DNA from: a virus
Taxonomy: Duplodnaviria; Caudoviricetes
DNA length: 64,000 nucleotides
Virus record (IMG/VR): IMGVR_UViG_3300044611_001018
Reading direction: 5' to 3' (one strand)
Shown here: piece after piece, positions 14,693 to 54,201 of the stretch
Layout: every line of letters starts with the position of its first letter
Position numbering within the stretch: position 1 is the stretch's first letter
Position numbers and translations under genes: made by a program
Notes under the pieces: generated by a model
What the model was told of the DNA's origin: nothing
The model's database searches: none
The model's input: only the letters and a program-made list of their open reading frames with translations

Positions 14693-14711
14693 CTTACAAT
14701 AATATTTCTTT

Positions 14712-21496: not shown

Positions 21497-21501
21497 AGAA
21501 G

Positions 21502-24148: not shown

Positions 24149-24332
24149 ATCAGTTAAATTCTTCTATTCTTTTTAGGTCCAAGTATGTAAGTATTTCTTT
24201 CCTCCATTCCATCAACTCATAATAACACTGTTGCTCATGGGCAATTTCACGCAACTCATAATCTGGTTTTAAGACGCTCTCATAAAAAAGATTAAATGCA
24301 TCGCGCCTTTTTTGATGTTTTTCCATAATTTC

Positions 24333-25555: not shown

Positions 25556-26794
25556 TCATCGTTTAATAGTAGCAATAGCAGGTTGACCTTCAACAAACAC
25601 AGTATCTACAACGTTCTGAAGGCGTTTGACCGTTGCAATGCCCACGTTGTTGTAAACGGGAACATGAACAAAACCAAAAGATTTGGTGTACTCCTGGAGA
25701 TTACCAGGAGTAAGAGTGCCTTGTTGAATACGCTTTACATCATCAAGATGAAGACGAATCACACGACCAACAGATTGGCACATCTCAATAACATTCATTT
25801 GACGCATCATAATCAAAGAAGTAAGACCAGGAACAGAGATACCTTCACTCAGAATAGAATAGTGCAGAACAATAAACTTTTTGTCAGGATCTGCACCATA
25901 CTCACGTACAAGATTAAAAAACTGCTCACGGGTAATTTTCTGGTCATTAAGGAATGCACCATGCTTGCTGGTAATCCAAAGGAGATCGTATCCCATGGAT
26001 TGAACTTCCTCCATAAAGGCAGTCTCAGCAAGCATACGGATCATCACTTTGGTATTAGGAGCAGCGATTAGAACCTTCTCCATGTGCTCTTCATTGGATA
26101 GGGTATCCAGAAGGGTCATACAGTCCCTCTCTGCCGCTTCCTCGCCCTTCAAACGAATGCTACCGACATTGATGGCGTTAATCTTAGGAGGAAGAATGGA
26201 ACCGTTACTAACAAGACGCGGAGCAGGAACATTGTAAATAATGCCACCGTAGACACTAGCATCATTCATTCCAGGTTTTGAAGCAGTGGCAGAATACTTA
26301 GGAGTAGCAGTGAAGAAATAACTGCGGTTAGCAACAGAAGAGAAATACTTGACGGAAGAGAAATAACTTTTTTTAACTGAATTGTGCGCTTCATCATAGT
26401 AAATCGTATCTACAGCAATGTTTGCTTCCTGAATGCGATGCAGAGACTGATAAGTAGTAAAGATCAACTTATTACCTTTAGTGTGATAGCACCAGGAAAA
26501 GATTTGATTTGGTTTAGTCGTTGTAAAGTAAGGAAGATCGCCACCAGAATGAACATGCATAATGGATGCATTGGTGATGTGCTCAGTAAACTCAGCAGAC
26601 AACTGACGAGCGAGCATCAACCTAGGAGCAACGACTACAATAGTTTTGTCACCAGTCATAAACTGACGAACAGCATCCATAATAGCAATCAGGGACTTAC
26701 CACCGCCAGTGGGAACCACAATCATCCCCTTAAGGATGCGGTCCATGATGTCAAGTGCTTCGGATTGATGAGGACGGAGTTGCATGGGTGTCAT
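25556..26794 (-). CDS. Superfamily-2 (DExH) helicase/ATPase, type III-restriction Res-like
   Basis: LRPHQ, PTGGGKS (Walker A), DEAH, TAT, LSEGISVP, QSVGRVIR. Start revised because the -10 box overlaps the ORF-track start. Confidence 0.88.
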   Translation of the reverse strand: MTPMQLRPHQSEALDIMDRILKGMIVVPTGGGKSLIAIMDAVRQFMTGDKTIVVVAPRLMLARQLSAEFTEHITNASIMHVHSGGDLPYFTTTKPNQIFSWCYHTKGNKLIFTTYQSLHRIQEANIAVDTIYYDEAHNSVKKSYFSSVKYFSSVANRSYFFTATPKYSATASKPGMNDASVYGGIIYNVPAPRLVSNGSILPPKINAINVGSIRLKGEEAAERDCMTLLDTLSNEEHMEKVLIAAPNTKVMIRMLAETAFMEEVQSMGYDLLWITSKHGAFLNDQKITREQFFNLVREYGADPDKKFIVLHYSILSEGISVPGLTSLIMMRQMNVIEMCQSVGRVIRLHLDDVKRIQQGTLTPGNLQEYTKSFGFVHVPVYNNVGIATVKRLQNVVDTVFVEGQPAIATIKR

Positions 26795-26806
26795 AACGAT
26801 AGAAAT

Positions 26807-26864
26807 ATTATACAGCAAAAGTTACCAACCATCATCGGGAGAGTGGTCAGTTAAAAAATTGGTC
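26807..26864 (-). promoter_or_regulatory. Early-type promoter upstream of the helicase
   Basis: GACCAATTTTTTAACTGACCAC; AACTG lies 40 nt before TTTTGCTG-TATAAT. Confidence 0.7.
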
Positions 26865-27266
26865 TAAGGTGGGATGACCTATTGTACCATCAAATCGGTA
26901 ATGATATTCAAGTGCATCTGAACAAACATAATGTGGATGAGTTGTGGGAATTCCAAGTCTCTTACATAATTCACGATGATTATCCTCCATTAACTCAACA
27001 GCATACAACATATTGTTTATTACATGGTCCTCATCATGATATCTGCATAATTTATTTTTTAATTCTACTATAAAATTACCATTTCCAGCAGAATTATCAA
27101 GGAATTTTGAATCGGGATTTTTGAACAAACTTTGATCCATACACTCAATCAATTCATTAACCAAATCTGGTGGAGTAAAAACTTCTCCAGTCTCAGAAAT
27201 TCTCTGGTCTGACCTTTCAACTTCAGACCCTAAAGACTCATTATGTTTATTTTTATTGGATGACAT
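26847..27266 (-). CDS. SAM-binding half of an N6-adenine DNA methyltransferase (motifs X, I, II, III)
   Basis: ETGEVFTP, FLDNSAGNGNF, YAVEL, VCSDAL; no NPPY. Confidence 0.8.
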   Translation of the reverse strand: MSSNKNKHNESLGSEVERSDQRISETGEVFTPPDLVNELIECMDQSLFKNPDSKFLDNSAGNGNFIVELKNKLCRYHDEDHVINNMLYAVELMEDNHRELCKRLGIPTTHPHYVCSDALEYHYRFDGTIGHPTLDQFFN

Positions 27267-28101
27267 TTTTATCTCTCAAATACTCTATTTCTTCAGATGT
27301 AAAATCAAATTGTTGATGCACATCATTAAAATCCTTTATAAGAGGAACTTCTGCATTTTTAACTGCTGCAGCGAATCCAGCAGTAGTTTTATAGTTTTCA
27401 ACAAACAACTTAATTAAAGGAATATCAAATATAGTTGATAATAATTTACCTCCCTCTTCATCTTTGATAGGGCACCATGAGTTTAACATACCGATGTATC
27501 CATTTGTGATAAATCTGTCAGTATATGAACAAGAATATGGCACTACAAATTTTAGTAAGTCTCCCGTAGTCGGAAGAACATTAGTTCTTTTTATATTTTT
27601 TCCTGAGGCGTAAACTTCGTACTTTCCATCATCACAGTACTCATCTTTTGGAATGTCCTGCCCAATCTTAAGAGGTATCCTTGGATGATTTGAATTTGCA
27701 ATTTTATTAAAAATAGCATGTAATAATTTTTCTTCTCCAAACAAAGGGAGTCCATCTCTCAAATCCAAATAATGGATTCCAGTCTCATGTATAACTTTTG
27801 TAACTCCTTTATATGGTTCTTTTTTTAAAATCCATGAACAAATAGACACACCTTCAGTAAAATACTTATCGGAAGTATAATCAATTTGAATTAGGTTATA
27901 AATTGTTTGACATTTTTGAAAGAACTTTTTGCCAAATCCAGTTGTTCCAATAAAAGATGATGGCGTAACCTTTGCCATGGTTGCGCCATTTTGAAGAAGA
28001 TTGATGTCCAATTCAATAAACTTATACCAAAGTTTATTATTTTTTGCTTTATTATTATCTTGATATGGTGGGTTTGATAATATAGTAAAATTCATAACCA
28101 C
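27253..28101 (-). CDS. Catalytic/TRD half of an N6-adenine DNA methyltransferase (Eco57I/TaqI-like)
   Basis: ILSNPPYQ at the extreme N-terminus, LWYKFIE, VTPSSF, C-terminal FDFTSEEIEYL; no motif I. Confidence 0.75.
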   Translation of the reverse strand: MVMNFTILSNPPYQDNNKAKNNKLWYKFIELDINLLQNGATMAKVTPSSFIGTTGFGKKFFQKCQTIYNLIQIDYTSDKYFTEGVSICSWILKKEPYKGVTKVIHETGIHYLDLRDGLPLFGEEKLLHAIFNKIANSNHPRIPLKIGQDIPKDEYCDDGKYEVYASGKNIKRTNVLPTTGDLLKFVVPYSCSYTDRFITNGYIGMLNSWCPIKDEEGGKLLSTIFDIPLIKLFVENYKTTAGFAAAVKNAEVPLIKDFNDVHQQFDFTSEEIEYLRDKNVIQ

Positions 28102-28117
28102 TTACAATCATAATCAG

Positions 28118-28146
28118 ATATTACTAGGTGTTTTTTAATTTGTCAA
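28118..28146 (-). promoter_or_regulatory. Sigma70-type promoter for the methyltransferase pair
   Basis: TTGACA-N17-TAATAT, inside the 3' end of the fibre gene. Confidence 0.55.
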
Positions 28147-31100
28147 CCTCTCTTCTTAACTCATCAATTTGTCCCTGCTGCTCCTTGATAGCCTCAATCA
28201 AAACTGCAACCATGTTCTGATATGCAACAGATTTAGTACCATCAGGAGCTTCATATACTAATTCAGGTAGTACTTTCTCAATCTCTTGTGCAATAACACC
28301 AATCTCACGTTCAGGTTGACCAATACGGTTAAAGTAAACACCTCTCAAATCAAGAACTTTATTAAGAGCATTACCAATACCAACAACATTTTCTTTCAGT
28401 TTCTCGTCAGAGTTTGCTGTAACTGTTCCTGAGAATGTTGCATTACCAGCATTGTTGAGTCTGAGTCGTTCTTGTGGTGCAGAAGGACCAGAACCTTGGG
28501 TTCCAAAGATAATAGCAAATTGACCTGAGGTTCCTTCAGATACACCTTTGATGTATCCACGCTCACCATCATTACCAATATCTCTACCTTCAAACTTCAA
28601 TCCACCATAAAAATACGAAGCATTAAGTGCCTGGTCAGTTTGCTGGAATCTCAAATAATTACCATCAATATCACCAGTTGTGTCTGGATTTGTTGTAATT
28701 AAAACGTCATTTCTAAAGGTTGAAATACCAGTTACCCTTAAGGTATTAAGATTAACTTGTTGGTTAAAGGTACTAATACCTGTATTAACTAAGAATCCAT
28801 TGGTAATATTCCAAGTTAGCGATGAGGCTCTAAATTCAACGTTATTTTCAAATAATGTTTGACCAGCAACATAAAGGGAATAACCAGCTTTTGCAGAAGT
28901 AGTCTCAATACCGACATTGGTTGTTGTTGAAATACCAACTCCATCAAATACCCAAACGTCAGATACGTTACTTAATCCAGAACCATCTCCCTTAAATGCT
29001 CCACTCCATAAACCAACATAATAATTATCACCACCAGATTGAATAGGTCCAAACTTTTTCCAATTATTATCATTGGTATAAACCCATCCAATTTCTCCAC
29101 CTGATGGTGGTTCTGCATCATATACAACGTTGCCAACGTTCCCTGCAATTAATGGCGTACCAATGCCTGTGGTATACTCTCTAGCAATAATTTGATCACC
29201 CTGAATAAGCAAACTATTTGCTTCAACAGAATTATTAATTGTTACTTTTTCATTAAATACTGCTGGACCATTAAATTCCGAGATAATATTATTGTCCTTT
29301 CCACCATCAACCTTTAATCCCCTATTAATAGTTAATTGTTCAGTAGAACCAACATCAAATCCAATAGCATCACTATTGCTTGTAAGGTCCTCTCCTCTTA
29401 CTGTTGGAATTGGAGCATTAGTAATTAAATCTTGTCCAGTAGCACCACTTGTAAATTTAGTTACTGTATATGCATTACCCTTATCATCCAATCCATTATA
29501 AAATGGAGTACCACCATTATCAGATACTGATTGTGATAGAATTCTTTCAACACTTCTAAACTGTCTATCTTGTCTCTCTGGTAAAGCAGTTGAATAGTTA
29601 CCAGGTCCAAATCCAAGATATTCAAAAGTGTGTCCAGATGCACGAATAATAGAGTTTCTTCTAAATTCTACTGGTTTAAATCTAACTTTTCTAATAACAG
29701 ACCCAACAACGTGAGTTTGTTTTTGAGTTCCAAATAATCCACGGAAGACATCAATTGCAGTATTAGAAGTAATTGACTCACTAATACGCATAATTTCATT
29801 ATCTAGAACCAGATAATCACCAATATCCCAACCCATATGAGTGGCATTGGTGACAGTCAAAGTATTAATTGTAGGATCAGTTAAAGCAACATTTAAAGTT
29901 GTAGTGATACCAGCGTACTGATAAACAAGTCTTGAAGATGCTGCTTCATCAGCAAAATCAATTGCACTATTTTGAGCACTAAATCCTATTGGATAAACTC
30001 TTCCAGATCCAGATGCAATTGCAGTTGTTGTACCTACTCCAACCTTTACAGCAAAACTACTTACATTATAAACTTCTGTTATTGTAAATTCACCGTTGTA
30101 AATATTCTGGTTGAATCCACCAAATTTAATTCTATTACCAACCAAGAATCCATGAGAATTTGAAGTGATAACACTTGCAATTCCAGTCACATTATTATAA
30201 TTTAACGAAGAGATTCCAACAGACTCACCAGTGACGTAGGCAGTAACGTCAGAAAGAACAGTAGCATTAACGTTACTCAGTCCATTAGTGTTAATACCAG
30301 TAATTGGTTGTGGACCAAGGAATTGATCTCTAGCATAAACTGTTGACGCAGATGATACTCTAACATTTTGATCATCACCAGTTGCAATACTCTCAATTTT
30401 ATAAACATTATTGTAATCAGTAAAACGACTGTCACGAATACCATCAATTTTAATTACATCACCAACGCTATTATGAATATTTAAAACTGTTACATAACCA
30501 GGAACCCATCCAGTAGTAGTTCCTACACCAACAACTGCTAATGTATTACCAATTCCAAAAGCAGAACCACCGTCTACAATTTTAATTCCAGTAATCGCAC
30601 CTGCAGAATCAATTTCAATGTTTGCAGTAGCATATTTTCCAGTTGTAGAACCAGCAAATCCTACCAGTCTTGCATTATACAACGTTTGAATGCTTCCAGA
30701 TCCATCACCATAATTTACACCAGCACTAGTAATTCCAACTCTAGTAATATAATTTAATCCATGATCTTTTTGAGTTGTAAGTGTGTGAGATATTCCAGAA
30801 CTTGAATGTATCTCAACAATTCCAAATCCAACAACAAAATCACGAATATTCTTATTAATAACCTCTTTTGTAATACTATTCTGTGGGTTATTAATCTCAG
30901 TTAGTCCAAGTGGTGTTGGTAGAGCAAACGTTCTAGTCTGATCTGGATCGGAATCTGGATTATCTCTATCAAGTTGTGGGTATAAATTTTTAACTGGTTG
31001 AGAGAATCTAAGATTTTGGAATGGAGATACTTGAGGTGAAGATGATGAATCAAGAATAGTTAAATGATAAACTCCATCTTTTGCATTTGGAACATATTCC

Positions 31101-33952
31101 TGGACTGCTTCCTTTCTATAAATGTAGAACGTATTACTAAATTCTTTTCTCTCATATCTGGGCAGATTTGTTGTTCTCTGATTAATATTATTAGAGAATG
31201 TTCCTGGATTGGTAGTAATACCAACTGTAAATTCTCTCCGTGTAGGACTTGATACAACAGTATAAACGCCATTAAATCCAGTATTTCCTAATCCACTTGT
31301 GTTTGCTGTTGATACAATGTTAAAAACTTGAACTTTAGAACCAACAGACAGTTCATGTGGTGTATCTGTCGTAAACGTCGCTAATCCAACAATTCCGTCC
31401 CAGGTAGCACCCGAAATAAATCTAGGATTTCTTAATTCTGAAGTATTAGATAGGACAGCTGGCGCAATACTTTTAAACTTAGCAACCTCTGCATTAGTAA
31501 ATCCAGTTGTATTGCTGGACTCCTGCATAATAAATGCATCTTCTGGAGGTCTACCAAGAACACTTGAATCTCTTGGAATTACATACCTTACTTTGTAAAT
31601 TCGATCTTCAAGAGCTCTATTATCAGGAGTTCTAGTAATAAATGTTTTTGGAGTTGCCCTACCAAGGGATGCTGTTCCAAGACCAACAATCGTACTATAA
31701 ATTGAGTTATTAGTAGAACTTACCGTAATAAACCATTGACCAATAGCACTATCATATTGTATTGGGTGCCCAACGTCACCAGACTTTTTATCAGATACTC
31801 TAGATTCAATCTGAAGAATACCACCTTTACTATTAACAGTGATAGCAGACAAACTTACAGTGTCATTAAATGTTTGTGCTAATTTAATCTGATCACTATT
31901 AATTCCAGCAGTAATTGCATAATAAAGTTGATTGTGCCTCAAACCATCAGGAAGTTCACCATCATCACTTAAAATACGTACAGATTCACCATTAATAAAT
32001 TGGTGAGGTTGAGTTGCTGTAAAGATATTAGAGGTAATACTATTAATACCAATTGCTGTTCTACCTACAGTAGATAATTTTGTAGCAGATACCTCATAAT
32101 TACCAGTTCCCTGTGTCTCTGGCATTACAATTACAGATTCTTTGGTAACACCAATGTTACCAATATTAATAACAACTTTTAATTTGTCCTGATTTTTCGC
32201 ACCAATTCGATATCCTTCTAATACTGATTTTGGTGGTATATTTCTATTGGTCTCATTATAAAGATAAAGTCTAGAAGTATTACCTACAGAAATTGTTTTC
32301 TCAACGTCAATAGGAGCAAATTCAATAGTTATTTCATTATTATCAACTCTTTGTGGTGGTAAAATATGGGTAATATATCCAGTATCATCTCTTGGGAAAG
32401 CGTCATTTCTGAATCCTCTACAAACAATTGCCTTTGCACCAAAGTTTGAGTTGGAGTTTGTAATCGAATGGTCTCCACCAGATTCTGCAACAAAGTGATT
32501 TGCATATCCAATAGCAAACACAGAAACTAGTTGAAGGAATGCATCATTTGATGCTTTAATATGGAAGTTTTCGTATGCTGGTTTATATACTGCAGAAGAA
32601 TTGGTATGAAGGTTTGAAACAGCAGTAGAATCTTCATAAACACCAGATACTGCATTATATTTTACAAATGCATTATCGTCTTTCTGTAGTCCAATACCAG
32701 TGAACTGAGCAACCACCATGGATTTAAATCCATCAGCTTTGCTACCATCCGCATGAAGTCCACACATTCCATAAACGGAACGTAAAGAACAATTGAAGAT
32801 ATATGGAGATGCAGAAGTAACACTGTCAACTACAATATTAAGAGTTGGAGCACCTGATACAATAGCAGGAAGAGGATTTACAGGTGCTGTAGAAACCTCA
32901 TAAGTAACCCGAGTTGTAGATTCTACAGTTTTTACAACATAAGAACCATTGTATCCACCACTAGGAATACCTTCAATTCTAATCGGAGTATCTACATCCA
33001 ATCCATCAACAGATTCAACAAGATCTACTGTAATTTTCTTACTGGAAGTTACACCATCACCTGCTCTGATACTAGAAATTCCAATATTTTGACCTTTAGA
33101 ACCAACAATTCGGAATTCATCAATTTTTGATTGAACATCAATTGCAGCACTTGGATAATCAGGTGAAATAGATCTTCCACTAGAAGGACCATATACTAAA
33201 CCGATTTTTTCATAATAAATGTCAAGGTCGGTTCTAGTCGTATTGTAATTTAAATAAGTATCATTAAATTTTACAGGATTTACACCATCCGCATATTCAA
33301 AACAAGTTAGTTTATGGTGAGAGAAGTTGGGAACAAACTTTGATGTGCCATAATCTTTATATACATTTGAGTTTGGATCCGCATCAAAAAATGTAAACTG
33401 ATAAAAATAACAAGTACCAGTTACTCGAAATAAACAAGTTGAATCAACTGTATTGTCTTGAGGACTTGGAACAAACCTTGGACGAATCTTTGTTTTACGA
33501 AGATCCATACCAACGATTGATGTGCCACGAGGAATGATAACTCCACCATAAACGGAGTTCATTTTATAAAGATCATTCTCTGGAGAATCAATGTCAAAAT
33601 CAGAATTTAAAGTAAATTCTGTGAGGTCATTAGAAGATGCACCACTTCTAGTTAACCAATTATTACCAGAAATAGGAGCGTCATGTACAGGAATCCATCC
33701 TGGTCTATTGTCGATTACATGTTCGCCAGGATAAACAATGATAGTTGTTCTACTAAATCTATCATTATCAAATCCTTTTTGATATGAGAATCTTGCTGCC
33801 TCAATCAGTGCCCTTTGAATTGTTTTAAAAGGTCTAACTAATGAGTTACCTTGGTTTTCAATACTATCTGTAGAGTCTATACTGGAAGGATCGACGTATA
33901 GAATATCGCCTCTACTATTTTTCAGAAAATTATCTAAGCGACTAAGACCCAT
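28124..33952 (-). CDS. Large virion fibre/structural protein, 1942 aa, with C-terminal S74 intramolecular chaperone
   Basis: Cyanophage-type N-terminus (MGLSRLDNFLKN...RPFKTIQRAL), beta-rich Gly/Ser/Thr body, SDEKLKEN...IGVIAQEIEKVLPELV, terminal coiled coil. Confidence 0.88.
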   Translation of the reverse strand: MGLSRLDNFLKNSRGDILYVDPSSIDSTDSIENQGNSLVRPFKTIQRALIEAARFSYQKGFDNDRFSRTTIIVYPGEHVIDNRPGWIPVHDAPISGNNWLTRSGASSNDLTEFTLNSDFDIDSPENDLYKMNSVYGGVIIPRGTSIVGMDLRKTKIRPRFVPSPQDNTVDSTCLFRVTGTCYFYQFTFFDADPNSNVYKDYGTSKFVPNFSHHKLTCFEYADGVNPVKFNDTYLNYNTTRTDLDIYYEKIGLVYGPSSGRSISPDYPSAAIDVQSKIDEFRIVGSKGQNIGISSIRAGDGVTSSKKITVDLVESVDGLDVDTPIRIEGIPSGGYNGSYVVKTVESTTRVTYEVSTAPVNPLPAIVSGAPTLNIVVDSVTSASPYIFNCSLRSVYGMCGLHADGSKADGFKSMVVAQFTGIGLQKDDNAFVKYNAVSGVYEDSTAVSNLHTNSSAVYKPAYENFHIKASNDAFLQLVSVFAIGYANHFVAESGGDHSITNSNSNFGAKAIVCRGFRNDAFPRDDTGYITHILPPQRVDNNEITIEFAPIDVEKTISVGNTSRLYLYNETNRNIPPKSVLEGYRIGAKNQDKLKVVINIGNIGVTKESVIVMPETQGTGNYEVSATKLSTVGRTAIGINSITSNIFTATQPHQFINGESVRILSDDGELPDGLRHNQLYYAITAGINSDQIKLAQTFNDTVSLSAITVNSKGGILQIESRVSDKKSGDVGHPIQYDSAIGQWFITVSSTNNSIYSTIVGLGTASLGRATPKTFITRTPDNRALEDRIYKVRYVIPRDSSVLGRPPEDAFIMQESSNTTGFTNAEVAKFKSIAPAVLSNTSELRNPRFISGATWDGIVGLATFTTDTPHELSVGSKVQVFNIVSTANTSGLGNTGFNGVYTVVSSPTRREFTVGITTNPGTFSNNINQRTTNLPRYERKEFSNTFYIYRKEAVQEYVPNAKDGVYHLTILDSSSSPQVSPFQNLRFSQPVKNLYPQLDRDNPDSDPDQTRTFALPTPLGLTEINNPQNSITKEVINKNIRDFVVGFGIVEIHSSSGISHTLTTQKDHGLNYITRVGITSAGVNYGDGSGSIQTLYNARLVGFAGSTTGKYATANIEIDSAGAITGIKIVDGGSAFGIGNTLAVVGVGTTTGWVPGYVTVLNIHNSVGDVIKIDGIRDSRFTDYNNVYKIESIATGDDQNVRVSSASTVYARDQFLGPQPITGINTNGLSNVNATVLSDVTAYVTGESVGISSLNYNNVTGIASVITSNSHGFLVGNRIKFGGFNQNIYNGEFTITEVYNVSSFAVKVGVGTTTAIASGSGRVYPIGFSAQNSAIDFADEAASSRLVYQYAGITTTLNVALTDPTINTLTVTNATHMGWDIGDYLVLDNEIMRISESITSNTAIDVFRGLFGTQKQTHVVGSVIRKVRFKPVEFRRNSIIRASGHTFEYLGFGPGNYSTALPERQDRQFRSVERILSQSVSDNGGTPFYNGLDDKGNAYTVTKFTSGATGQDLITNAPIPTVRGEDLTSNSDAIGFDVGSTEQLTINRGLKVDGGKDNNIISEFNGPAVFNEKVTINNSVEANSLLIQGDQIIAREYTTGIGTPLIAGNVGNVVYDAEPPSGGEIGWVYTNDNNWKKFGPIQSGGDNYYVGLWSGAFKGDGSGLSNVSDVWVFDGVGISTTTNVGIETTSAKAGYSLYVAGQTLFENNVEFRASSLTWNITNGFLVNTGISTFNQQVNLNTLRVTGISTFRNDVLITTNPDTTGDIDGNYLRFQQTDQALNASYFYGGLKFEGRDIGNDGERGYIKGVSEGTSGQFAIIFGTQGSGPSAPQERLRLNNAGNATFSGTVTANSDEKLKENVVGIGNALNKVLDLRGVYFNRIGQPEREIGVIAQEIEKVLPELVYEAPDGTKSVAYQNMVAVLIEAIKEQQGQIDELRREVDKLKNT

Positions 33953-33981
33953 TTTATTACTCTAGGATGGCTACTATGATT

Positions 33982-33987
33982 TATTTA
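33982..33987 (-). promoter_or_regulatory. Late-type promoter TAAATA for the fibre gene, within an 8-bp inverted repeat (33972..33996)
   Basis: TACTATGA-ATAAATAAA-TCATAGTA. Confidence 0.55.
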
Positions 33988-34016
33988 TTCATAGTAAAAA
34001 CCATAAACAGAGGGTA

Positions 34017-34178
34017 TTATTTTGCTAACATATACTCAACAGTATTTGCAACATCGTTCATAGCATCACGTAAATCAGGTCTTTGACCAGATTCTTGTCT
34101 TAAAATAGGTCGGGAATCATCAACAAGGGTCCAACGCCATTGACCCATTTCTTTGCAGTGCCAAAGATTAATTTTCAT
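34017..34178 (-). CDS. Small hypothetical protein, 53 aa (not in ORF track)
   Basis: MKINLWHCKEMGQWRWTLVDD...AMNDVANTVEYMLAK; overlaps the upstream stop. Confidence 0.65.
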   Translation of the reverse strand: MKINLWHCKEMGQWRWTLVDDSRPILRQESGQRPDLRDAMNDVANTVEYMLAK

Positions 34179-35274
34179 ATGCAGGATTACTCCAATCGTT
34201 AGTAAAAGATCTAAGATATTCTATTTTTTCTAACATTTCTTGACTATCAAGAACAAATTCTTCATTAGCAAAATGAAGTTTGCAGTTGTGTTCTAATGCA
34301 AGATTCATTATATATGTTCTTCTGGATTTGTCATCAGGTAAAGAAAAAATACTAAACAAAATGATATGATCTAAATTTGTATGTTTTATAGAATACTCTA
34401 AAAATGAGTGATTTCTTCCTTCATTATCTCCAGTTTGATGTGGAAATTTATAACCCATCCTAGAACAATACTCCCTAACAGTTAATGTCTGAAAGTATAA
34501 ATCAATATGTTTGGTTTTAAATCCTTCATATTCTGCATAGGTTACCACATTTTCATGTGGTAAAATTTCAATCTTGCGAGACTGAATATCTGTATCATGC
34601 AATCTTCTAAAGTATGCCCCTGGCCATTTTCGATGAGGTTGTCCATCTCTTAGTAATAATCTTACATCAATACTCATTCTAGTTTTTCCAGTTCTATTTG
34701 GTACTCCACCATGAATATTTTCTTGAGTAAAAAGTAAAAATGTTCCAGGAGACATATTTACTGGATAACATTCTTGAGTACAAACCTCTTCTAGTTTTTC
34801 ATGAGACCATTTTTCTTTCTCAGACATACGAGTAATTTCTCTACTCTTATCAATTCCAATAATTTGGAGTGAATTTGTATCAAAAGTTTCTGTAAAAGGT
34901 AACCAAACAGTTCTTAATCCGAGACCATTACCAACCCATCTACCTTGATGGAATGGAAGAACAGTCCCATTCTTATCTTGATTGGGAATTGTTGCCCTAA
35001 TATTACCAAATTTTTGTATAAGAATATCAGTATTTAACTGCGGAACAACATATTCTTCTACCATCCTATCAAATAAAATATAAAAATCAGTATCAACAAG
35101 ATCTTTAGTTAAATGTTTTACTAGTTCTCCAATAGAATTTGAAGATACATGTTCATGGAGATATTGAAGATCTTTTACTTCTGGGTAATATTTTTGAACT
35201 AGAGATAACAAAATATCCCCAAAAGGATATTTGTTCATATCATATTGATTGTGAGTAGCGTCAAATATAAGCAT
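34168..35274 (-). CDS. StrG/PhyH-like 2OG-Fe(II) oxygenase-fold domain with HxG site, fused to a C-terminal flavodoxin/resolvase-like domain
   Basis: PFHQG (H109, G111), TVWLPF, NIHGG (H188), R199-x-S. C-domain QTLTVREYC...IILFSIFSLP...CKLHFANE. Confidence 0.7.
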   Translation of the reverse strand: MLIFDATHNQYDMNKYPFGDILLSLVQKYYPEVKDLQYLHEHVSSNSIGELVKHLTKDLVDTDFYILFDRMVEEYVVPQLNTDILIQKFGNIRATIPNQDKNGTVLPFHQGRWVGNGLGLRTVWLPFTETFDTNSLQIIGIDKSREITRMSEKEKWSHEKLEEVCTQECYPVNMSPGTFLLFTQENIHGGVPNRTGKTRMSIDVRLLLRDGQPHRKWPGAYFRRLHDTDIQSRKIEILPHENVVTYAEYEGFKTKHIDLYFQTLTVREYCSRMGYKFPHQTGDNEGRNHSFLEYSIKHTNLDHIILFSIFSLPDDKSRRTYIMNLALEHNCKLHFANEEFVLDSQEMLEKIEYLRSFTNDWSNPAYEN

Positions 35275-35290
35275 ATCTATTCTTAGTCTA

Positions 35291-35362
35291 AGCCCCCGAC
35301 TGGATTTGAACCAGCGACCAACGGTTTACAAAACCGTTGCTCTACCACTGAGCTACAAGGGC
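35291..35362 (-). tRNA. trnT: tRNA-Thr(UGU)
   Basis: GCCCTTGTAGCTCAGTGGTAGAGC...TT-TGT-AA...GGTTCAAATCC...GGGGGCT; CCA not encoded. Confidence 0.95.
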
Positions 35363-35363
35363 A

Positions 35364-35651
35364 TTAATAATCATCTAGTTCTGCTAAAACCTCAGGATTT
35401 TCTAAATCCATTTCAAAAAAACACGGATGTGCTTCTTCCATTATTAAGTATGCAGAAGCTCTGAATAAATCTTCTGCAGTATATGTAAGGTTATTATTAG
35501 CTTCAATAATAGTAGATGGGTCTGCTTCTTCCTCTTCGGTTAAATCATCCCAAGTGAACGGTATAGAATTAACAAAGTACATCATAACAACGTTCTTTAT
35601 ATTTATTTCTGGAGAATGCCAGCAATAAGCTTTGGTGATTCTAAGCTTCAT
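35364..35651 (-). CDS. Hypothetical protein between tRNAs
   Basis: 95-aa ORF preceded by TAAATA (35671..35676). Confidence 0.6.
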   Translation of the reverse strand: MKLRITKAYCWHSPEINIKNVVMMYFVNSIPFTWDDLTEEEEADPSTIIEANNNLTYTAEDLFRASAYLIMEEAHPCFFEMDLENPEVLAELDDY

Positions 35652-35726
35652 TCTCTACACCGTTTCTTTATATTTAGTTTAAGGAAGGCGGAGAGTTATA
35701 CTCAATCCCTTTAATATTCCTTCCAG

Positions 35727-35809
35727 TAGGAGCGGGGGGACTTGAACCCCCACAGGCAATGCCCGACAGATTTTAAGTCTGGTGTGTCTACCGATTCCAC
35801 CACGCTCCC
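35727..35809 (-). tRNA. trnL: tRNA-Leu(UAA)
   Basis: GGGAGCGTGGTGGAATCGGTAGACAC...CT-TAA-AA, long variable arm, GGTTCAAGTCC; no intron. Confidence 0.95.
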
Positions 35810-35817
35810 ATAAGAAC

Positions 35818-36021
35818 TTACACCTTGTAAGTGGGTGGATGATACTTCAAATATTCCCTAAAAGTCATTTTCATTTCTTTTTGGGTCATACCACAGTGTT
35901 TTGCTGCAGCAGGAAGTGTCATCGTACAATTGAAGAGACCTTTGTTTGCTTCCTTGACATTCTCTGGAGTTGTCTTTACAGGCATTTCAAATAGGTCAAT
36001 ATAAAGTGGTTTTGTTTTCAT
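35818..36021 (-). CDS. Small hypothetical protein (possible helix-turn-helix)
   Basis: TLPAAAKHCGMTQKEMKMTF. Confidence 0.55.
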   Translation of the reverse strand: MKTKPLYIDLFEMPVKTTPENVKEANKGLFNCTMTLPAAAKHCGMTQKEMKMTFREYLKYHPPTYKV

Positions 36022-36055
36022 AAGTATTAAGTTTGTAAATCCCCAATTAAGGGGA

Positions 36056-36126
36056 AGCGAATGACGGGGATCGAACCCGTGACACCAACTTGGAAGGATG
36101 GGATGTTACCGCTACACCACATTCGC
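36056..36126 (-). tRNA. trnG: tRNA-Gly(UCC)
   Basis: GCGAATGTGGTGTAGCGGTAAC...CT-TCC-AA...GGTTCGATCCC...ATTCGCT. Confidence 0.95.
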
Positions 36127-36188
36127 AGATGTAATCATTAAGAGATCTAAACTGAGATTTGGGCGACCCCTCAACTGATTACCCTTAT

Positions 36189-36217
36189 ATTATAGGGCAT
36201 TGGTTCTGAGGTGTCAA
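36189..36217 (-). promoter_or_regulatory. Consensus sigma70 promoter driving the tRNA cluster
   Basis: TTGACA-N17-TATAAT, perfect match. Confidence 0.85.
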
Positions 36218-36223
36218 CCCCCC

Positions 36224-36976
36224 CTACCAAGGTCCACCGTATGCTGGATCATTGGCATAACCAAGAGCCTCATTGAGTTCGGTTAATCTTTCAATATTTT
36301 CTTGCAGTTGCCTGTTAAGACCCCAAACTTGCAATTCATATTCTCCTTTTATCTTTTGTGTTGCTGTAGCAATACTATTCTGAGAAGACACTGTACCAAT
36401 TCCAGAATTATATTGAGATATAAGAGAACTTACATCTACTGCAGGACCAATAATATCAAACACCTTTCCTAACTCAGATCCACCATTTTGAAATAGTCTT
36501 GTGCTTACACCAAGTCCAACATTAGAAGATGTAACAGTGACATATCCCTCTCCATTAAATGGATAGTCGGACCCATAATTTCCTCCAGAAATTTTTGGGT
36601 AATCATAAGATTTAAGAACATCTGCTGTAATTGTCCCATATGCAATAATTACAGACCCCAATCCAACAATACCTAAAGATGAAGCAGTAGCAGTTCCTAC
36701 TCCAGATACAACACTTCCATATTGAGAGCTAATATTTGCCGTACTAGAACCATATCTTGTCGTTAATAAACCAGTATTCCCACCAATAGCAACAATTTGG
36801 ACTTTAATTGCATTTGCAGCATTTACAGTATTTAAACTTTGCTGAGCAGCATTTGCAGATGGTCCATTAAAAGCATCTCTTAAAGAAGAGGCAATAGAAA
36901 TTCTTTGTGGCAATATTTGATTTTGCCTTAAAAGAGTTTCCTTATCTTCTTGTAATTTAGTTACAACAATTCCCAT
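36224..36976 (-). CDS. Probable virion structural protein
   Basis: Gly/Ser/Ala-rich with coiled-coil ends; TAAATA at 36999..37004. Confidence 0.55.
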   Translation of the reverse strand: MGIVVTKLQEDKETLLRQNQILPQRISIASSLRDAFNGPSANAAQQSLNTVNAANAIKVQIVAIGGNTGLLTTRYGSSTANISSQYGSVVSGVGTATASSLGIVGLGSVIIAYGTITADVLKSYDYPKISGGNYGSDYPFNGEGYVTVTSSNVGLGVSTRLFQNGGSELGKVFDIIGPAVDVSSLISQYNSGIGTVSSQNSIATATQKIKGEYELQVWGLNRQLQENIERLTELNEALGYANDPAYGGPW

Positions 36977-37006
36977 AAATCATTATATGTATTTTCTATA
37001 TTTATT

Positions 37007-37747
37007 GTGAAAGTTGCTCTATTATTAACTGGATATATGAGGAATTGGGAGAACCACTTCCAAAACATAAAAACCAATATTATTGACAAATATTCAACTG
37101 ATGTATACATCAGTTCTTACAGTTATTCTGAACTTTACATGGGTTCTGATATAGTTCAGATAGATGTAGATGACATAATAAAGAAATATAATCCAAAAAA
37201 TTATTTGTTTAGAGATAAAGAAACTCTTCCAGAATTTAAATTCAAATCAAATGGATTAGAGATAAATGGAAGAGAATGGTCATATAGAATATTAAGACAA
37301 TGGTATACAAATTATCTGGGATTACGAATATTTGATCCTAGAGAATATAATATTGTAATTAAATGCAGAGCAGACTTCTCTATAAAAAACTTTCACCTTC
37401 AAACAAATAAAGACTTGGTTTTGCCTGTGTGGAAGGTTCATCCAGGTCCATGCAATCCAGAAGATTCATATGTGGATTACTTTGCACATGGAAATGGATA
37501 TTGGATGAAAAAATATCTTAAATTGTATGAAAAAACAAAAGAGATGCATGATAATGATTGGGGTGATGTCTCCTTGGGAGAAACCCTAATCAAATCATAC
37601 ATCGATAGGTATATTGGTTCTGAACATATCACATTAGATTATGATATGGATTGGAAGATGAGAGATGAACCTTGGATGTCTGAGGTCCAGAACATTTATA
37701 AAAAACACGACCCTCTCAAAGTTGTAACCATTGAGAAGGATGTGTAG
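37007..37747 (+). CDS. Putative glycosyltransferase-like (GT-A-type) protein
   Basis: KVALLLTGYMR...YNIVIKCRADF...DYFAHG...GETLI pattern; isolated plus-strand gene, GTG start. Confidence 0.5.
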   Translation: MKVALLLTGYMRNWENHFQNIKTNIIDKYSTDVYISSYSYSELYMGSDIVQIDVDDIIKKYNPKNYLFRDKETLPEFKFKSNGLEINGREWSYRILRQWYTNYLGLRIFDPREYNIVIKCRADFSIKNFHLQTNKDLVLPVWKVHPGPCNPEDSYVDYFAHGNGYWMKKYLKLYEKTKEMHDNDWGDVSLGETLIKSYIDRYIGSEHITLDYDMDWKMRDEPWMSEVQNIYKKHDPLKVVTIEKDV

Positions 37748-38390
37748 AACCCTGATGGTAATCTGGATTTTGTGGTTTTAAAGTAACACGAATATCACCA
37801 GGAATCACAAGACGTTCACCCTTTCTCTCAGTAAACTTTTGAGTAAAGTGCCCAATTTTACTTGGAAAAATTACTACACTACCCTCGATAGGGGTAATAC
37901 TATAAACATTACAATTATAACGATTATATCCAGTGATTAAATTCTTTTGTAGTGCCTCAGTGAACATATCACCAACACATTCATTAGGATTTTTTTCTTG
38001 TGCTACGCAAAATTTATCAGAAGTCTCATCAGTTTTAACATAATAAACAAAACTCAAATCTGATGCATTATGATTATGGGGTTTAATTGATGGTGTATCA
38101 TCATCTTTATGGTATCCAACCCAAGACTTGATGATATGATAATCAAGTTTTGAATAGTCCACATTAAGATATCCAAAATAATTATCTACATGACTGCGAA
38201 GTTCTTCAAAAAATGGACGATAAATCTCATTTTGGTGTGCAAAAATCCTACCAGAATACTCTGGACTTTCGTTTTGATAACCATCAAACCAATAATCACG
38301 AAGTTCTTCCAAGTAAATCTTAATTTTATCCTGGGACTCCACCATTCCCTGATAAACAATCAGAGGGAATGCTTCATGTACTCGGTGCAT
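37716..38390 (-). CDS. Putative 2OG-Fe(II) oxygenase (HxH type)
   Basis: KSW...IKPHNH...LSFVYYV...EGSVVIFPSKIGHF...RLVI. Confidence 0.75.
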   Translation of the reverse strand: MHRVHEAFPLIVYQGMVESQDKIKIYLEELRDYWFDGYQNESPEYSGRIFAHQNEIYRPFFEELRSHVDNYFGYLNVDYSKLDYHIIKSWVGYHKDDDTPSIKPHNHNASDLSFVYYVKTDETSDKFCVAQEKNPNECVGDMFTEALQKNLITGYNRYNCNVYSITPIEGSVVIFPSKIGHFTQKFTERKGERLVIPGDIRVTLKPQNPDYHQGSTHPSQWLQL

Positions 38391-39043
38391 TACTTACCGT
38401 TAATATTGTACTCTCTATTATCACCTGGATAGTCTGCTGGTGTCAAGCCACGATACTCAGAAATATTTTTGGTGGTGTCAATCCGTTCACCAAAAACAAC
38501 ATAATCACAATTAATAGCAGTTCCTGCATTATTCTTAACGTATATTCTATCTCCCCATTCAATCCTATCAACAAACAATTCTTGCCAGTGTCCATTAGGA
38601 GTTAAATTGATAACTAAAGTTTCCATATCAACAAAATCTTTCCAATAATCTGGCAATTGGATGTAAGACTCATTGACAAGTTTACCTTTTAAATAAACAT
38701 CTGCAGTAGGACCTTCAAGACAAATATATCTGAGACGATGGTCTTGTTTAGTTGGATGTTGAATATCAAAAGATTTCTTAGCATCCCAAACAGCAGCTTT
38801 TGCATTTAAAGACCCGACAGATGCTGTTTTAACGTCTTGTCCCTGAACAAGAGCATCTGCTTTTAGGTTACCAACTTTAACATTATAATGTATCCAAGGG
38901 GTACATGCTTCTACTGGATAATCTGGGTCACCAGTTGTTGACTTCAAAATATAATCATATTTTGAAGAAAATGGTCCTGTAATACCCTCGTCTTTACAAT
39001 TTGATTTATTCGTATTCTTTAAAATAAACTTTTCATCTGCCAT
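38390..39043 (-). CDS. Tail-associated protein with intramolecular-chaperone-like C-domain
   Basis: AKKSFDIQHPTK...LRYICLEGP...IQLPDYW...LTPNG. Confidence 0.6.
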   Translation of the reverse strand: MADEKFILKNTNKSNCKDEGITGPFSSKYDYILKSTTGDPDYPVEACTPWIHYNVKVGNLKADALVQGQDVKTASVGSLNAKAAVWDAKKSFDIQHPTKQDHRLRYICLEGPTADVYLKGKLVNESYIQLPDYWKDFVDMETLVINLTPNGHWQELFVDRIEWGDRIYVKNNAGTAINCDYVVFGERIDTTKNISEYRGLTPADYPGDNREYNINGK

Positions 39044-39045
39044 AA

Positions 39046-39816
39046 TTACCTCTTCGTATCATAGTGATATCCAGATACAGAATACTCATCATTATTACCA
39101 GGATAATCTGCAGGAGTTTGACCTTGATATTCTGGTATCAATCTCTCACCATCTTTGCGTTCACCAAAAACATGATAATGACAATCAATTGGTTTTGCAG
39201 CGTGAAGATATATTTTATTATCTTCTATCTTCTGAACAATAATACTTTGATGAGATCCAACTGGAGTAATAGAAACTGTAATTGAATCAACATCTACCAA
39301 TTCTCTCCAATAATCTGGAAGATCAATTATATTTAAATTCTTTAATTTACCTCTTATGTATACATCATTAGATGGGCCTTCTGGGCAAGTGTGGCGAAGT
39401 CTCCATCCATCTTTTGTAGGATGAGGGATATCAAAATTCTTTTTAGCGGAAAGAATATGTCCACCACAACGAGACATAACCTCACCTTGAGTAATTAAAT
39501 TGCCACCAACATTTACATTAGCGTTTGTATCAACAACGCCTAAAAATGCAGTTGATCCAGTAACAGCAAGAGAATATGGATTATTAATTCCTGTACACAA
39601 TGCCCCAGGTATTAATGGTGGTTTAAACAAATCAGAATTATTGCATTTTCCAATCATTACTGTAGCAGTAAGGAATGATGGAATTGCGCCAAAAACAGAA
39701 GGACCTTCCATAAATGAACCACCTCTAATTTGAAGCGGTCCTTTACCCAAAACAAGGGAAGGATCTCCTACACCAACATATAATGTTTTTTTAACTTCTA
39801 AATCAGGTACTTTCAT
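39046..39816 (-). CDS. Tail-associated protein with intramolecular-chaperone-like C-domain (paralogous domain)
   Basis: AKKNFDIPHPTK...LRHTCPEGP...IDLPDYW...ITPVG. Confidence 0.6.
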   Translation of the reverse strand: MKVPDLEVKKTLYVGVGDPSLVLGKGPLQIRGGSFMEGPSVFGAIPSFLTATVMIGKCNNSDLFKPPLIPGALCTGINNPYSLAVTGSTAFLGVVDTNANVNVGGNLITQGEVMSRCGGHILSAKKNFDIPHPTKDGWRLRHTCPEGPSNDVYIRGKLKNLNIIDLPDYWRELVDVDSITVSITPVGSHQSIIVQKIEDNKIYLHAAKPIDCHYHVFGERKDGERLIPEYQGQTPADYPGNNDEYSVSGYHYDTKR

Positions 39817-40403
39817 TAAATAAATCCTCCACCTTTTTGTTGTTCCTCAAAATCAGATATACCTTTAGATTTTTTCAATGTTGTACAAGAATCTGCACAA
39901 TCAATCAATCCACCATAAAAGTTTAGTGTTCCATTACCAACTATTTCCATTACGCCAGAAGAAAGGAATTTTGCTACAGAATCTCCATTTACTTCTATAT
40001 TTTTTGATCTAATATTAATTTTTTCATTTGATTCAATATTAATATATCCACTTTTATTGCCACTACCATTAGCAATCATATCAATATTTTTAGCTTCAAA
40101 CCTAATTCTGCCTAAAGGAGCAGCAATAACAATATCACCATCAGAAGCTCTTAAAATAAAAGAAGTATTATCTACTGGTTTTTCACCACACATAATTTGA
40201 TAAACACCAGGACAACGATTAATCGTAGATCCCGTCATTTTTCCAGAAGACATAAACATCATATAATGTTCTGATGGTTGTCCAGGATGACCATTTCTCA
40301 ACATAACACCAGCATAGGTGTTATTCATATTAATATGACCTAGTTTTAAATGCCCGTAATTGCTTCCCAATTCTATTGGGTTATGAAGTTGTGGTTTTCC
40401 CAT
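39816..40403 (-). CDS. Probable gp5 C-terminal beta-helix/spike-like protein
   Basis: Repeating short beta strands (NIDMIA, INIES, NIEVNG), directly after gp5. Confidence 0.5.
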   Translation of the reverse strand: MGKPQLHNPIELGSNYGHLKLGHINMNNTYAGVMLRNGHPGQPSEHYMMFMSSGKMTGSTINRCPGVYQIMCGEKPVDNTSFILRASDGDIVIAAPLGRIRFEAKNIDMIANGSGNKSGYINIESNEKINIRSKNIEVNGDSVAKFLSSGVMEIVGNGTLNFYGGLIDCADSCTTLKKSKGISDFEEQQKGGGFI

Positions 40404-42769
40404 TAATCAACTCTTCCTACACAATCGACAATTCTGATAACTTTAAACTTTTGCTCATCTGTTAATGTCCCTTCGGTGTCATCCCCAATTCTTCTTACAC
40501 AAAAAACTGGTGTAATAACAGCATTATATCCTGTCTCAGATTTAATGTAAATCTCTGGTCTTTCTACAAATCCATTTCCAGAATTAATAATTCTCAAAGA
40601 GGTTAAAACACCAAATGGTCCAAATGTAGCTTCAATTTCTGCACCAGAATTTGGTTCAATAACAACTTTATCTCCTGAAGAATAGTTAATTCCAGCATTT
40701 TCAATAACCAAATCACAAATATACAAGATTGCTGGATAACTTCCAATATTAATTACTGGGAATGCATCAAGTTCTGTTGCACCATTAGTACCTGTTCCAG
40801 GTATTGCTGTGATTCCAGTAGCATTTCCAATTTGATTTTCTGGAGGCAACCCAGCATCATTTTGATTATCACCACCAAATCCAGGAGGAGTAAGTCCAAT
40901 CACAGGCGCTACACCTTCCAATATTTGCTTATCTTCTGGTCTAATTACAACATCACCTTCTCTTTGAGGAATTTCTGTTCCTGGTGGATATTGTTCCCAT
41001 CTTCCATCGGGAGTCCTAATCACAGTATTTTCAGCTGGTGCCCAGACCCTACCATCACCACCCAAATCTCCATTAGGTCTTGTTGGATAATCTGCTCCAG
41101 GACTAGGAACAGCAACATTAACAACTTGATAAGTTGGTTGTCCAGTATTTGGATCTGTTCCTCCATCTGGTGCAATAATTGGAGTTGCATACGCCCCAGA
41201 ACCTTTACCACAATTATCACTAATGTCTATAAAAGGAGCTTTAGTATAACCAGATCCCCCAGCAATAATATCAACTCCTAAAATGTCTCCTGTTGCACTT
41301 AGGATTGCATTTCCTCTTGCACCACTTCCACCACCACCCCAAAAAGTAACAGTTGGAGGACCACAAAAAACAGGACCAACATTACACCCACTTGTTGCAC
41401 TAATTGCACTATTAATTAATCCACTAAAATCAACTGCTGCTGCAATAGTATCAACTACACCAGTCGCACTACCAACCAATCCACTAACTTGAGATGCTAT
41501 TCCTTGAGCAGAATTAATAATGGAATTAATATCAAAAATTGCTGCTGGTTTCCCACCTTCAAAAATATTCCATTCTTTTGTTTCTGGACACTCCTGTTCT
41601 TCTTCACAAGCAAAAAATCCAGCCAATGCTTTTAAAAGATTTAAAATTGAATTAGCAATACTGAATGCTCCTCCAATTAAACCAGATACAGAACTAATAA
41701 TAGAATCAACAGCACCTGCGATTCTTCCAATTGTATTTCCTAATAAGTCGGCAACAAAATTTTGAACAGCACAAGCAGGAACATTGATATAACGATTAAA
41801 GATTTGATTAAGAAAATTACCAATCATCTTAAAAAGATTTGAAATCAATTTATTAAATAGACAAGTAATCAACTCCATGAGGGCATCATGCCCTTTTTTG
41901 GCTTTGTCTCTATCGGGTGGATTTATATTCTCATATAATTTTTTAGTTTCTTTATTAATTTTCTCTTCGACAAATTTACGGATTTCTTTAAATACCCATT
42001 TTAAACCTTCAGCAATAAACTCTTGTGCTTTTTGAGTTTTTTCCTGAATCCATTTTTGCTTATCAGAAATCCATCCTTGAGCAGAAGATTCCCACTCTGA
42101 TAATTGTTTTTGAGCCTTTTCAATCTTTTGAATCAACTCCTGCATAGACTTCATAATTCCAGTTAATGGAATTTTTTCACAGTCTGTAGGGGATGCAACA
42201 CCAAAAGTATATTCTTGAACAACAGATTTATCGCTTATTCCCCAAAGGTTTGCATTAAATGTTGTTTCTAGTGGAAGACCTTTTACTAATGGAACATTAA
42301 AAGCTGCTACAATATCTTTTTCTCCATACCCACTATAAGATTCAAATCCATTCTGACCTTGAGTTCTTTTAATAGGAACTTCTTCGTTATTCCCTAAAGT
42401 ACCTAAAATTATAGGATTATTTAATTTTGAAATATCTCCCCAAATACCATAAACTCTAGACCCCTGAGTTATTCCACCAATTAAACCAGCTCCTTGATGA
42501 CCACTTCCAGCAGACCCCATTCTAACCTCTGCCCATGGAAGTTGATCATCTGGGAGAAGTTTTTTATCAGCTGGATGAACATTTTGTATCCTGACTTTTA
42601 CTCTTTTTCCCCAATTTTCAAGTTGTTTAGGATTTGTAATTCCTTTTTCTTGAGAATCAGTGCTCCATGTTTCTCTTGGCGCAACAATACCTTCCCACCA
42701 ATATTTTACAAGTGGATCTTTAAGAAAGTTGTAAGGTACATCTAAAGCAGCAGAATGTGAAAATGTCAT
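40403..42769 (-). CDS. gp5: Baseplate hub subunit gp5-like (OB-fold N-terminus, no T4 lysozyme domain seen)
   Basis: WWEGIV...GKRVKVRI...DDQLPWAEV...GSRVYGIW; later GxGY structural repeats. Confidence 0.75.
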   Translation of the reverse strand: MTFSHSAALDVPYNFLKDPLVKYWWEGIVAPRETWSTDSQEKGITNPKQLENWGKRVKVRIQNVHPADKKLLPDDQLPWAEVRMGSAGSGHQGAGLIGGITQGSRVYGIWGDISKLNNPIILGTLGNNEEVPIKRTQGQNGFESYSGYGEKDIVAAFNVPLVKGLPLETTFNANLWGISDKSVVQEYTFGVASPTDCEKIPLTGIMKSMQELIQKIEKAQKQLSEWESSAQGWISDKQKWIQEKTQKAQEFIAEGLKWVFKEIRKFVEEKINKETKKLYENINPPDRDKAKKGHDALMELITCLFNKLISNLFKMIGNFLNQIFNRYINVPACAVQNFVADLLGNTIGRIAGAVDSIISSVSGLIGGAFSIANSILNLLKALAGFFACEEEQECPETKEWNIFEGGKPAAIFDINSIINSAQGIASQVSGLVGSATGVVDTIAAAVDFSGLINSAISATSGCNVGPVFCGPPTVTFWGGGGSGARGNAILSATGDILGVDIIAGGSGYTKAPFIDISDNCGKGSGAYATPIIAPDGGTDPNTGQPTYQVVNVAVPSPGADYPTRPNGDLGGDGRVWAPAENTVIRTPDGRWEQYPPGTEIPQREGDVVIRPEDKQILEGVAPVIGLTPPGFGGDNQNDAGLPPENQIGNATGITAIPGTGTNGATELDAFPVINIGSYPAILYICDLVIENAGINYSSGDKVVIEPNSGAEIEATFGPFGVLTSLRIINSGNGFVERPEIYIKSETGYNAVITPVFCVRRIGDDTEGTLTDEQKFKVIRIVDCVGRVD

Positions 42770-42773
42770 CTAT

Positions 42774-42986
42774 TCAATCATCATATACTTTACATTCTAA
42801 TGCATGTGGATGAGAGTCACAATATAATTCCAATGATGTAGGATCATGGTCATCTTCTGGGTGACGTTGTTGATATGCCTCTAGATCCCTCAATTCTTCC
42901 TCAGTATGGCGACGCCTTTGTGGAGAAATAGTAGGATCATCAAGAATCATTTTATCATTGTCAATATGTTGTTGAATGTTATCCAT
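42774..42986 (-). CDS. cp12: CP12 Calvin-cycle inhibitor
   Basis: SPQRRRHTEEELRDLE...PTSLELYCDSHPHALECKVYDD (C-terminal Cys-x8-Cys). Confidence 0.9.
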   Translation of the reverse strand: MDNIQQHIDNDKMILDDPTISPQRRRHTEEELRDLEAYQQRHPEDDHDPTSLELYCDSHPHALECKVYDD

Positions 42987-42995
42987 TTAATTAAC

Positions 42996-44297: not shown

Positions 44298-44319
44298 TTT
44301 TGAAAGTTATATTTACTAT

Positions 44320-47325: not shown

Positions 47326-47326
47326 C

Positions 47327-49868: not shown

Positions 49869-49879
49869 GTGAGAGAGGG

Positions 49880-50599: not shown

Positions 50600-50633
50600 G
50601 ATATTCTGATATAAGTTTCAGTATGTTTATTTA

Positions 50634-51533: not shown

Positions 51534-51574
51534 CTAAATAAAGTTAACTGTTTATATTATATGTAGTACACTTA

Positions 51575-52665: not shown

Positions 52666-52667
52666 AA

Positions 52668-54197: not shown

Positions 54198-54201
54198 TAA
54201 G

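Follow-up and report, generated by a model that had tools for sequence, protein, structure and literature searches.

This locus raises the question of whether an uncultured lake cyanophage encodes a radical halogenase or instead an oxygenase whose iron site is unusual. The DNA analysed is a stretch of 64,000 nucleotides from a virus (Duplodnaviria; Caudoviricetes; IMG/VR record IMGVR_UViG_3300044611_001018), and the whole of it is referred to here as the window. The gene concerned occupies 34168..35274 on the minus strand and encodes 368 amino acids plus a stop codon, as a fusion of an iron(II)/2-oxoglutarate (Fe(II)/2OG) oxygenase domain with a TIGR04323 domain. A reading of the window from its letters alone (the sequence-only reading) had proposed that the product may be a phage-encoded non-heme-iron halogenase, its first metal motif being His-x-Gly (HxG) in place of the His-x-Asp (HxD) of hydroxylases. 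The open reading frame (ORF) and the residues on which that proposal drew (H109-Q-G111, H188 and R199-x-S201) were all confirmed in place. Our own answer, which is tentative and falls a little short of an even chance, is an oxygenase with a 2-His(+Gln) iron site.

The N-terminal domain and its iron site

The structure of the whole protein was predicted with AlphaFold2 from an alignment of 82 sequences, giving a mean predicted local distance difference test score (pLDDT) of 95.4 and a predicted template modelling score (pTM) of 0.91. Residues 1-232 (34579..35274, minus strand) have the PhyH fold of Fe(II)/2OG enzymes in this model, and the structural matches are PhyH-like, bearing out the oxygenase fold that had been proposed. 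Foldseek matches include the halogenases CurA and SyrB2 (12-17% identity), and the epimerase SnoN, the carbocyclase SnoK and the endoperoxidase FtmOx1 are also among the PhyH-like matches; the structures nearest to the enzyme are hydroxylases. Sequence families were matched as follows: TIGR04324 at 88.3 bits over residues 32-206, under its curated cutoff of 150; Pfam PF05721 (PhyH) at 24.4 bits against a gathering score of 22, covering only residues 150-200; and TIGR01762, the chlorinating enzymes of SyrB2/CmaB type, at 12.5 bits over residues 168-201 only, far under the curated cutoff of 226.3.

The first metal motif, H109-Q110-G111, is encoded by CAT CAA GGT at 34942..34950 (minus strand). 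A profile of the N-terminal domain was aligned to PtlH (PDB 2rdn) at an E-value of 0.002, with FHQ-G placed against the FHQ-D-G of PtlH and with F-x5-H and R-M-S-x-D also paired. Because G111 is set on Asp139, the Asp ligand of PtlH, this alignment indicates that HQG is not a chance tripeptide and that the glycine occupies the place of the family's Asp iron ligand, as the sequence-only reading had it. H109, Q110 and G111 are kept in 81 of 81 homologs covering the site, down to 33% identity, and the enzyme's own clade is thus HxG throughout. The distal iron ligand H188 (34711..34713, minus strand) is conserved in 82 of 82 homologs, as are T198, R199 and D203. R199 belongs to the motif binding the C5-carboxylate of 2OG (R199-M-S201; 34672..34680, minus strand), which aligns with the RMS of PtlH and in which S201 is kept in 74 of 82. 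About 25 further positions are strictly conserved down to 33% identity.

A domain of this fold may also carry out some other Fe/2OG reaction (desaturation, epimerisation or ring formation), or act as a binding module without turnover. The epimerase, the carbocyclase and the endoperoxidase among the structural matches speak for this, as does the weaker hold of a 2-His site on iron. However, the strict conservation of the His ligands, of the Arg/Ser 2OG site and of the other positions down to 33% identity argues for catalysis, and there is no pointer to any specific alternative reaction; we consider this explanation unlikely.

Glycine 111, glutamine 184 and the reaction

The wider family was collected by an exhaustive profile search that yielded 1266 relatives, 207 of them with both motifs; among these 207, 102 are HxG and 104 are HxD. 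True TIGR04324 members (200-305 bits) are unfused and HxD. Residue 184 (CAA, 34723..34725, minus strand), four positions before the distal histidine (distal His-4), is Gln without exception in the 102 HxG proteins; of the 104 HxD proteins just 3 carry Gln there, and Pro, Ser or Ala is the usual residue. Among all columns at least 85% conserved in the HxG proteins, only 111 and 184 differ in the HxD relatives. Residue 111 of the HxG-type proteins is always Gly and never Ala, and their residue 184 is never Glu, though the change from Gln to Glu takes a single base.

A tree was made in IQ-TREE with columns 111 and 184 left out. Nine changes between Asp and Gly are needed on it, at least five of them forced by well-supported branches, and residue 184 changes between Gln and non-Gln eight times. 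In five independent pairs, Gln changes in the same direction in about 4.5 and in the opposite direction never. HxD forms are nested inside the HxG clade, namely P0091 (HKD, Ser184), P0099 (HCD, Pro184) and P0103 (HVD, Asn184), and further P0092 (HQD, Met184), P0095 (HSD, Glu184) and P0098 (HND, with Gln184 kept). When gene contexts were compared between the natural HxD revertants and their HxG sisters, the contigs proved short or unrelated.

A carboxylate filling the vacated site from elsewhere was also sought, and no invariant one was found in the sequences. E185 is present in 93 of 102 HxG proteins and was rejected as an essential relocated carboxylate, since 8 of the 102 have Gly, Ala, His or Cys instead. 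D203 was rejected as a compensating ligand, since PtlH carries HxD together with the same RMSxD motif.

The likely position of Gln184 was judged from HctB. A model based on its crystal structure has His111 and His227 as iron ligands, with Val113 (His+2) and Glu223 (distal His-4) within 6 Å of the Fe(IV)-oxo-chloride and Glu223 adjoining the halide; in other halogenases the distal His-4 residue is Ser or Lys (PMC6218459). By alignment it is Ser in CytC3, Ala in PtlH and Gly in EasH. Because Glu223, its equivalent in HctB, adjoins the chloride, Gln184 is expected beside the site vacated by the change from Asp to Gly. There it could favour halide rebound or could equally serve as an iron ligand.

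In the reading that we tentatively prefer, the protein would be a tailoring enzyme, built of two domains, in a pathway of sugars or glycans. Its N-terminal domain, which retains the two His ligands and the Arg/Ser pair that binds 2OG, would work as an Fe(II)/2OG enzyme; the Asp would have been lost at residue 111 and Gln184 gained beside the vacated position in the same step, and the glutamine would complete the 2-His iron site, either directly or via a bound water. A modified sugar or sugar nucleotide would be hydroxylated or oxidised in a related way. Such a site would be akin to the 2-His site of AspH or to the 2-His-1-Gln site of methylphosphonate synthase. AspH is a natural HxG hydroxylase with a two-histidine iron site and no carboxylate (PMC10947486), and HxG alone is therefore no proof of halogenation. 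The HalA I151N/N224V double mutant, in which the HxG site is intact, is a pure hydroxylase (bioRxiv 10.1101/2024.09.19.613983).

Further points were counted for an oxygenase. Gly and Gln together take up roughly as much space as Asp with a small residue; the D/G state flipped at least five times without other active-site change; residue 111 is never Ala; and hydroxylases are the nearest structures. We know of no halogenated sugar in glycans, which was counted likewise.

Other points weigh against an oxygenase. The sign test for the coupling, underpowered by the number of pairs, gave p 0.06-0.125. Residue 184 of the HxG proteins is Gln throughout and nowhere Glu, which argues that it donates a hydrogen bond and is not a metal ligand that has moved. 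Finally, all characterised PhyH-like enzymes with a conserved HxA/G that we know of are halogenases.

A radical halogenase is a serious candidate, to which we give a smaller yet substantial chance. G111 would free an iron site for chloride or bromide, and the amide of Gln184 would lie behind the halide, hydrogen-bonded; the ferryl would abstract a hydrogen atom from its substrate, a sugar or sugar nucleotide, and rebound of the halide would follow, halogenation being either the final modification or a cryptic leaving group. What favours this is the clade-invariant HxG at the true Asp position, CurA and SyrB2 among the Foldseek matches, and the halogenase activity of the known PhyH-like HxA/G enzymes. 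Gly replaces the Asp/Glu of HxD/E, as Ala or Gly does in halogenases, and as in these the PhyH-like fold retains the distal His and the 2OG-binding Arg. A polar donor at 184 suits the halogenase pattern (Glu223 in HctB, Ser or Lys in others; PMC6218459), and a residue that is never Glu is as expected with a bound anion. In lysine halogenases, the D-to-G change suffices to switch the outcome when joined by two residues of the second sphere, an Asn amide among them (bioRxiv 10.1101/2024.09.19.613983), and a two-residue natural switch is therefore plausible.

Of the first proposal, the fold, the position of HxG and the second domain have held up, and neither of the sequence findings named beforehand as refuting it (homologs mostly HxD, or a carboxylate supplied from elsewhere) turned up in the enzyme's clade; halogenase activity does not follow from these, AspH and the HalA mutant being hydroxylases with HxG. 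It is possible, if on the whole doubtful, that the entire widespread clade, with its members in marine bacteria, in uncultured cyanophages and in further phages of lakes and the sea, is one of Fe/2OG halogenases acting carrier-independently on sugars or sugar nucleotides. These would then be the first viral Fe/2OG halogenases, none having been found in the literature searched, and would supply the first halogenation step of a glycan pathway. The family would also hold at least five natural hydroxylase/halogenase switches, each made by two residues (Asp111 to Gly, and 184 to Gln).

The second domain, the gene contexts and the substrate

Residues 238-368 (34171..34563, minus strand) form a C-terminal domain of TIGR04323 (the LIC12192 family); the match covers residues 245-354 and scores 58.8 bits, against a curated cutoff of 55. 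A TIGR04323 protein is also the best AlphaFold DB cluster for this domain, with a template modelling (TM) score of 0.74. A resemblance to the partner proteins of sporadic carbohydrate-cluster oxygenases had been proposed for this part of the protein, and both matches agree with it. In the bacterial "sporadic carbohydrate clusters", TIGR04323 and TIGR04324 proteins come from two distinct genes lying side by side. Because the neighbours are fused here, the sequences support a joint function of the two domains, and this function would be independent of the D/G state, since the fusion is carried by HxG proteins (97 of 102) and HxD proteins (48 of 104) alike.

Modelled by itself (pLDDT 88), the C-terminal domain has the resolvase-like alpha/beta fold of a serine-recombinase catalytic domain, with TM 0.58-0.66 to TP901-1, gamma-delta and Bxb1 at about 12% identity. 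No description of this fold kinship was found for the uncharacterised TIGR04323 family. Between strand 1 and helix 1 there is no conserved Ser or Arg, the residues conserved there being Y246 and Q262; no DNA-binding domain follows, the protein ending at this point, and a Pfam scan gave no match to PF00239. A recombinase was rejected, as both the Ser/Arg motif and the DNA-binding part are lacking. The conserved polar residues (Y246, Q262, C270, N284, E285, S308, S311, D314, R319, H334, N337 and E338) sit after strands or within helix 1 of the predicted fold, and possibly make up a ligand-binding or catalytic site. The domain probably binds or presents the substrate.

The nature of that substrate was approached through gene contexts. 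The enzyme gene of a second group of phages (16 contigs, 55% identity) comes after genes for a GT1 glycosyltransferase, a DegT aminotransferase, an SDR epimerase/dehydratase and a B12 radical SAM protein, and its start overlaps the stop of the last. The neighbours in Roseivirga are a GDP-mannose dehydratase, an epimerase, a GT2, two fucosyltransferase-like genes and a sulfotransferase. In metagenome-assembled genomes (MAGs), the gene adjoins a PhyH gene with the canonical HTD motif and one for a large GT2/GT4 protein (Planctomycetota, L003) or a Wza-like exporter (Kiloniellaceae, L004). Our best guess for the substrate is a modified sugar or sugar nucleotide; the sequence-only reading had suggested the same, and the contexts in related phages and bacteria fit it. 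Neither the window nor the nearest record, a half-complete fragment, has homologs of the sugar genes seen in that second group.

Two of these settings have details of their own. In contigs L073 (2943..9922) and L092 (4732..19754), a tight cassette of GT1, DegT, SDR and B12 radical SAM genes precedes the HQG enzyme, which is followed by genes for GTP cyclohydrolase I, a PTPS/QueD-like protein and a radical SAM protein, resembling the 7-deazaguanine pathway. In two Planctomycetota contigs (L003, 7003..7923; L008, 7088..7936), an HTD PhyH dioxygenase lies directly upstream of the HQG fusion, making an HxD/HxG pair.

A different substrate is suggested by the neighbours of the gene in the window. 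A tail fibre of 1942 amino acids is encoded at 28124..33952 (minus strand); it ends in a Peptidase_S74 domain and has about 50% identity to annotated cyanophage tail fibres. Between the two lies a gene of 53 amino acids (34017..34178, minus strand), overlapping the stop end of the enzyme gene by 11 nt. The enzyme might modify the fibre protein or its glycan, for example by hydroxylating fibre residues, and about 50 viral contigs (63-93% identity) do share the order of 95-aa gene, enzyme, 53-aa gene and fibre. However, S-SM2 and other cultured cyanophages lack any homolog of the enzyme, although the 53-aa gene and the fibre stand at the same place (57% and 49% identity), and in bacteria and in the phages at 55% identity the gene lies in sugar-gene cassettes with no fibre nearby. 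Modification of the fibre is therefore regarded as very improbable. The neighbour is a fibre gene, as had been noted. The adjacency looks positional, cultured relatives keeping the 53-aa gene and the fibre without the enzyme; it is not evidence of function, and the fibre is probably not the substrate.

The order in S-SM2 is 95-aa gene, tRNA-Thr, 53-aa gene and fibre. Because this cultured phage has the flanking genes and the fibre without the enzyme, the enzyme gene is an insertion beside tRNA genes in an uncultured lineage, between tRNA-Thr and the 53-aa gene. The tRNA-Thr gene (35291..35362, minus strand), 16 nt upstream of the enzyme's start codon, marks the insertion site. A tblastn search of 50,697 deposited phage genomes gave no enzyme homolog, and the DNA similarity of the window to deposited phage genomes is confined to tRNAs.

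Other features of the window were noted in passing. The 53-aa gene has no Pfam family and stands directly before the fibre in the roughly 50 viral contigs and in S-SM2; it was rejected as a partner of the enzyme, as phages without the enzyme also have it beside the fibre, and it may be a fibre assembly factor. At 35291..36126 (minus strand), tRNAs Thr-TGT, Leu-TAA and Gly-TCC alternate with conserved ORFs of 95 and 67 amino acids, in a pattern shared by S-SM2, and accessory genes appear to insert at this stretch. The gene at 37007..37747 (246 aa, phrog_13607) is the sole plus-strand gene of a long minus-strand run and overlaps the end of a 2OG oxygenase gene at 37716..38390 (PF13759). The pair is kept in 15 related contigs, and both genes are absent at the same place in S-SM2. 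The other oxygenases of the window had been said to use HxD or HxH; this one, with which that statement was checked, has H-N-H. Overlapping ORFs at 26847..27266 and 27253..28101 (minus strand) hold an N-terminal N6_Mtase part and a C-terminal Eco57I-like methyltransferase part, and could be a split or frameshifted DNA methyltransferase gene. The octamer TATAAATA occurs 0 times on both strands of the window (1..64000), where shuffles predict 8.0 ± 2.6.

Meaning and comparison with known systems

No papers on TIGR04323/TIGR04324 or LIC12192/3 were found in a literature search. Whether it is an oxygenase or a halogenase, the enzyme would give a first functional handle on this pair from bacterial surface-carbohydrate clusters, and would point to unknown sugar chemistry in abundant lake and ocean phages. 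An oxygenase would be an Fe/2OG enzyme with its third iron ligand moved and chemically changed (2-His + Gln), in a family that records repeated natural exchange between two iron-site designs. A halogenase would extend C-H halogenation to sugars as substrates and to viruses as a source, both of them new, with natural hydroxylase/halogenase pairs only two active-site residues apart, as sought by enzyme engineers.

The TIGR04324/TIGR04323 proteins, both uncharacterised, are alike in the PhyH-like core, the FxxxxxHG...TRxS motif and the carbohydrate-gene contexts. True TIGR04324 members have about 250 amino acids, are unfused and HxD, and carry a small residue or His at distal His-4, whereas the present enzyme, at 88 bits, is a fusion and has HxG with Gln. 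The halogenases SyrB2, CytC3, CurA Hal and HctB share with it the fold clade, the lack of a carboxylate at His+2, the distal His, the 2OG-binding Arg and a polar distal His-4 residue beside the vacated site. They differ in their 12-17% identity, with no family-level sequence match; the window enzyme, unlike them, has no carrier-protein partner, always has Gly at 111, and has Gln at distal His-4, not Ser, Lys or Glu. PtlH, the 1-deoxypentalenic acid 11-beta-hydroxylase, differs in having FHQ-D, Ala at distal His-4, a terpenoid substrate and no second domain. The orthosomycin oxygenases EvdO1 and AviO1 are PhyH-like and act on oligosaccharides, in antibiotic pathways and at 11-14% identity. AspH, the human Asp/Asn beta-hydroxylase, is of a different 2OG subfamily and acts on protein; the enzyme has no AspH match in Pfam or NCBIfam, and we know of no coupled Gln in AspH. 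It is alike in its HxG...H two-histidine iron site, with which it still hydroxylates (PMC10947486).
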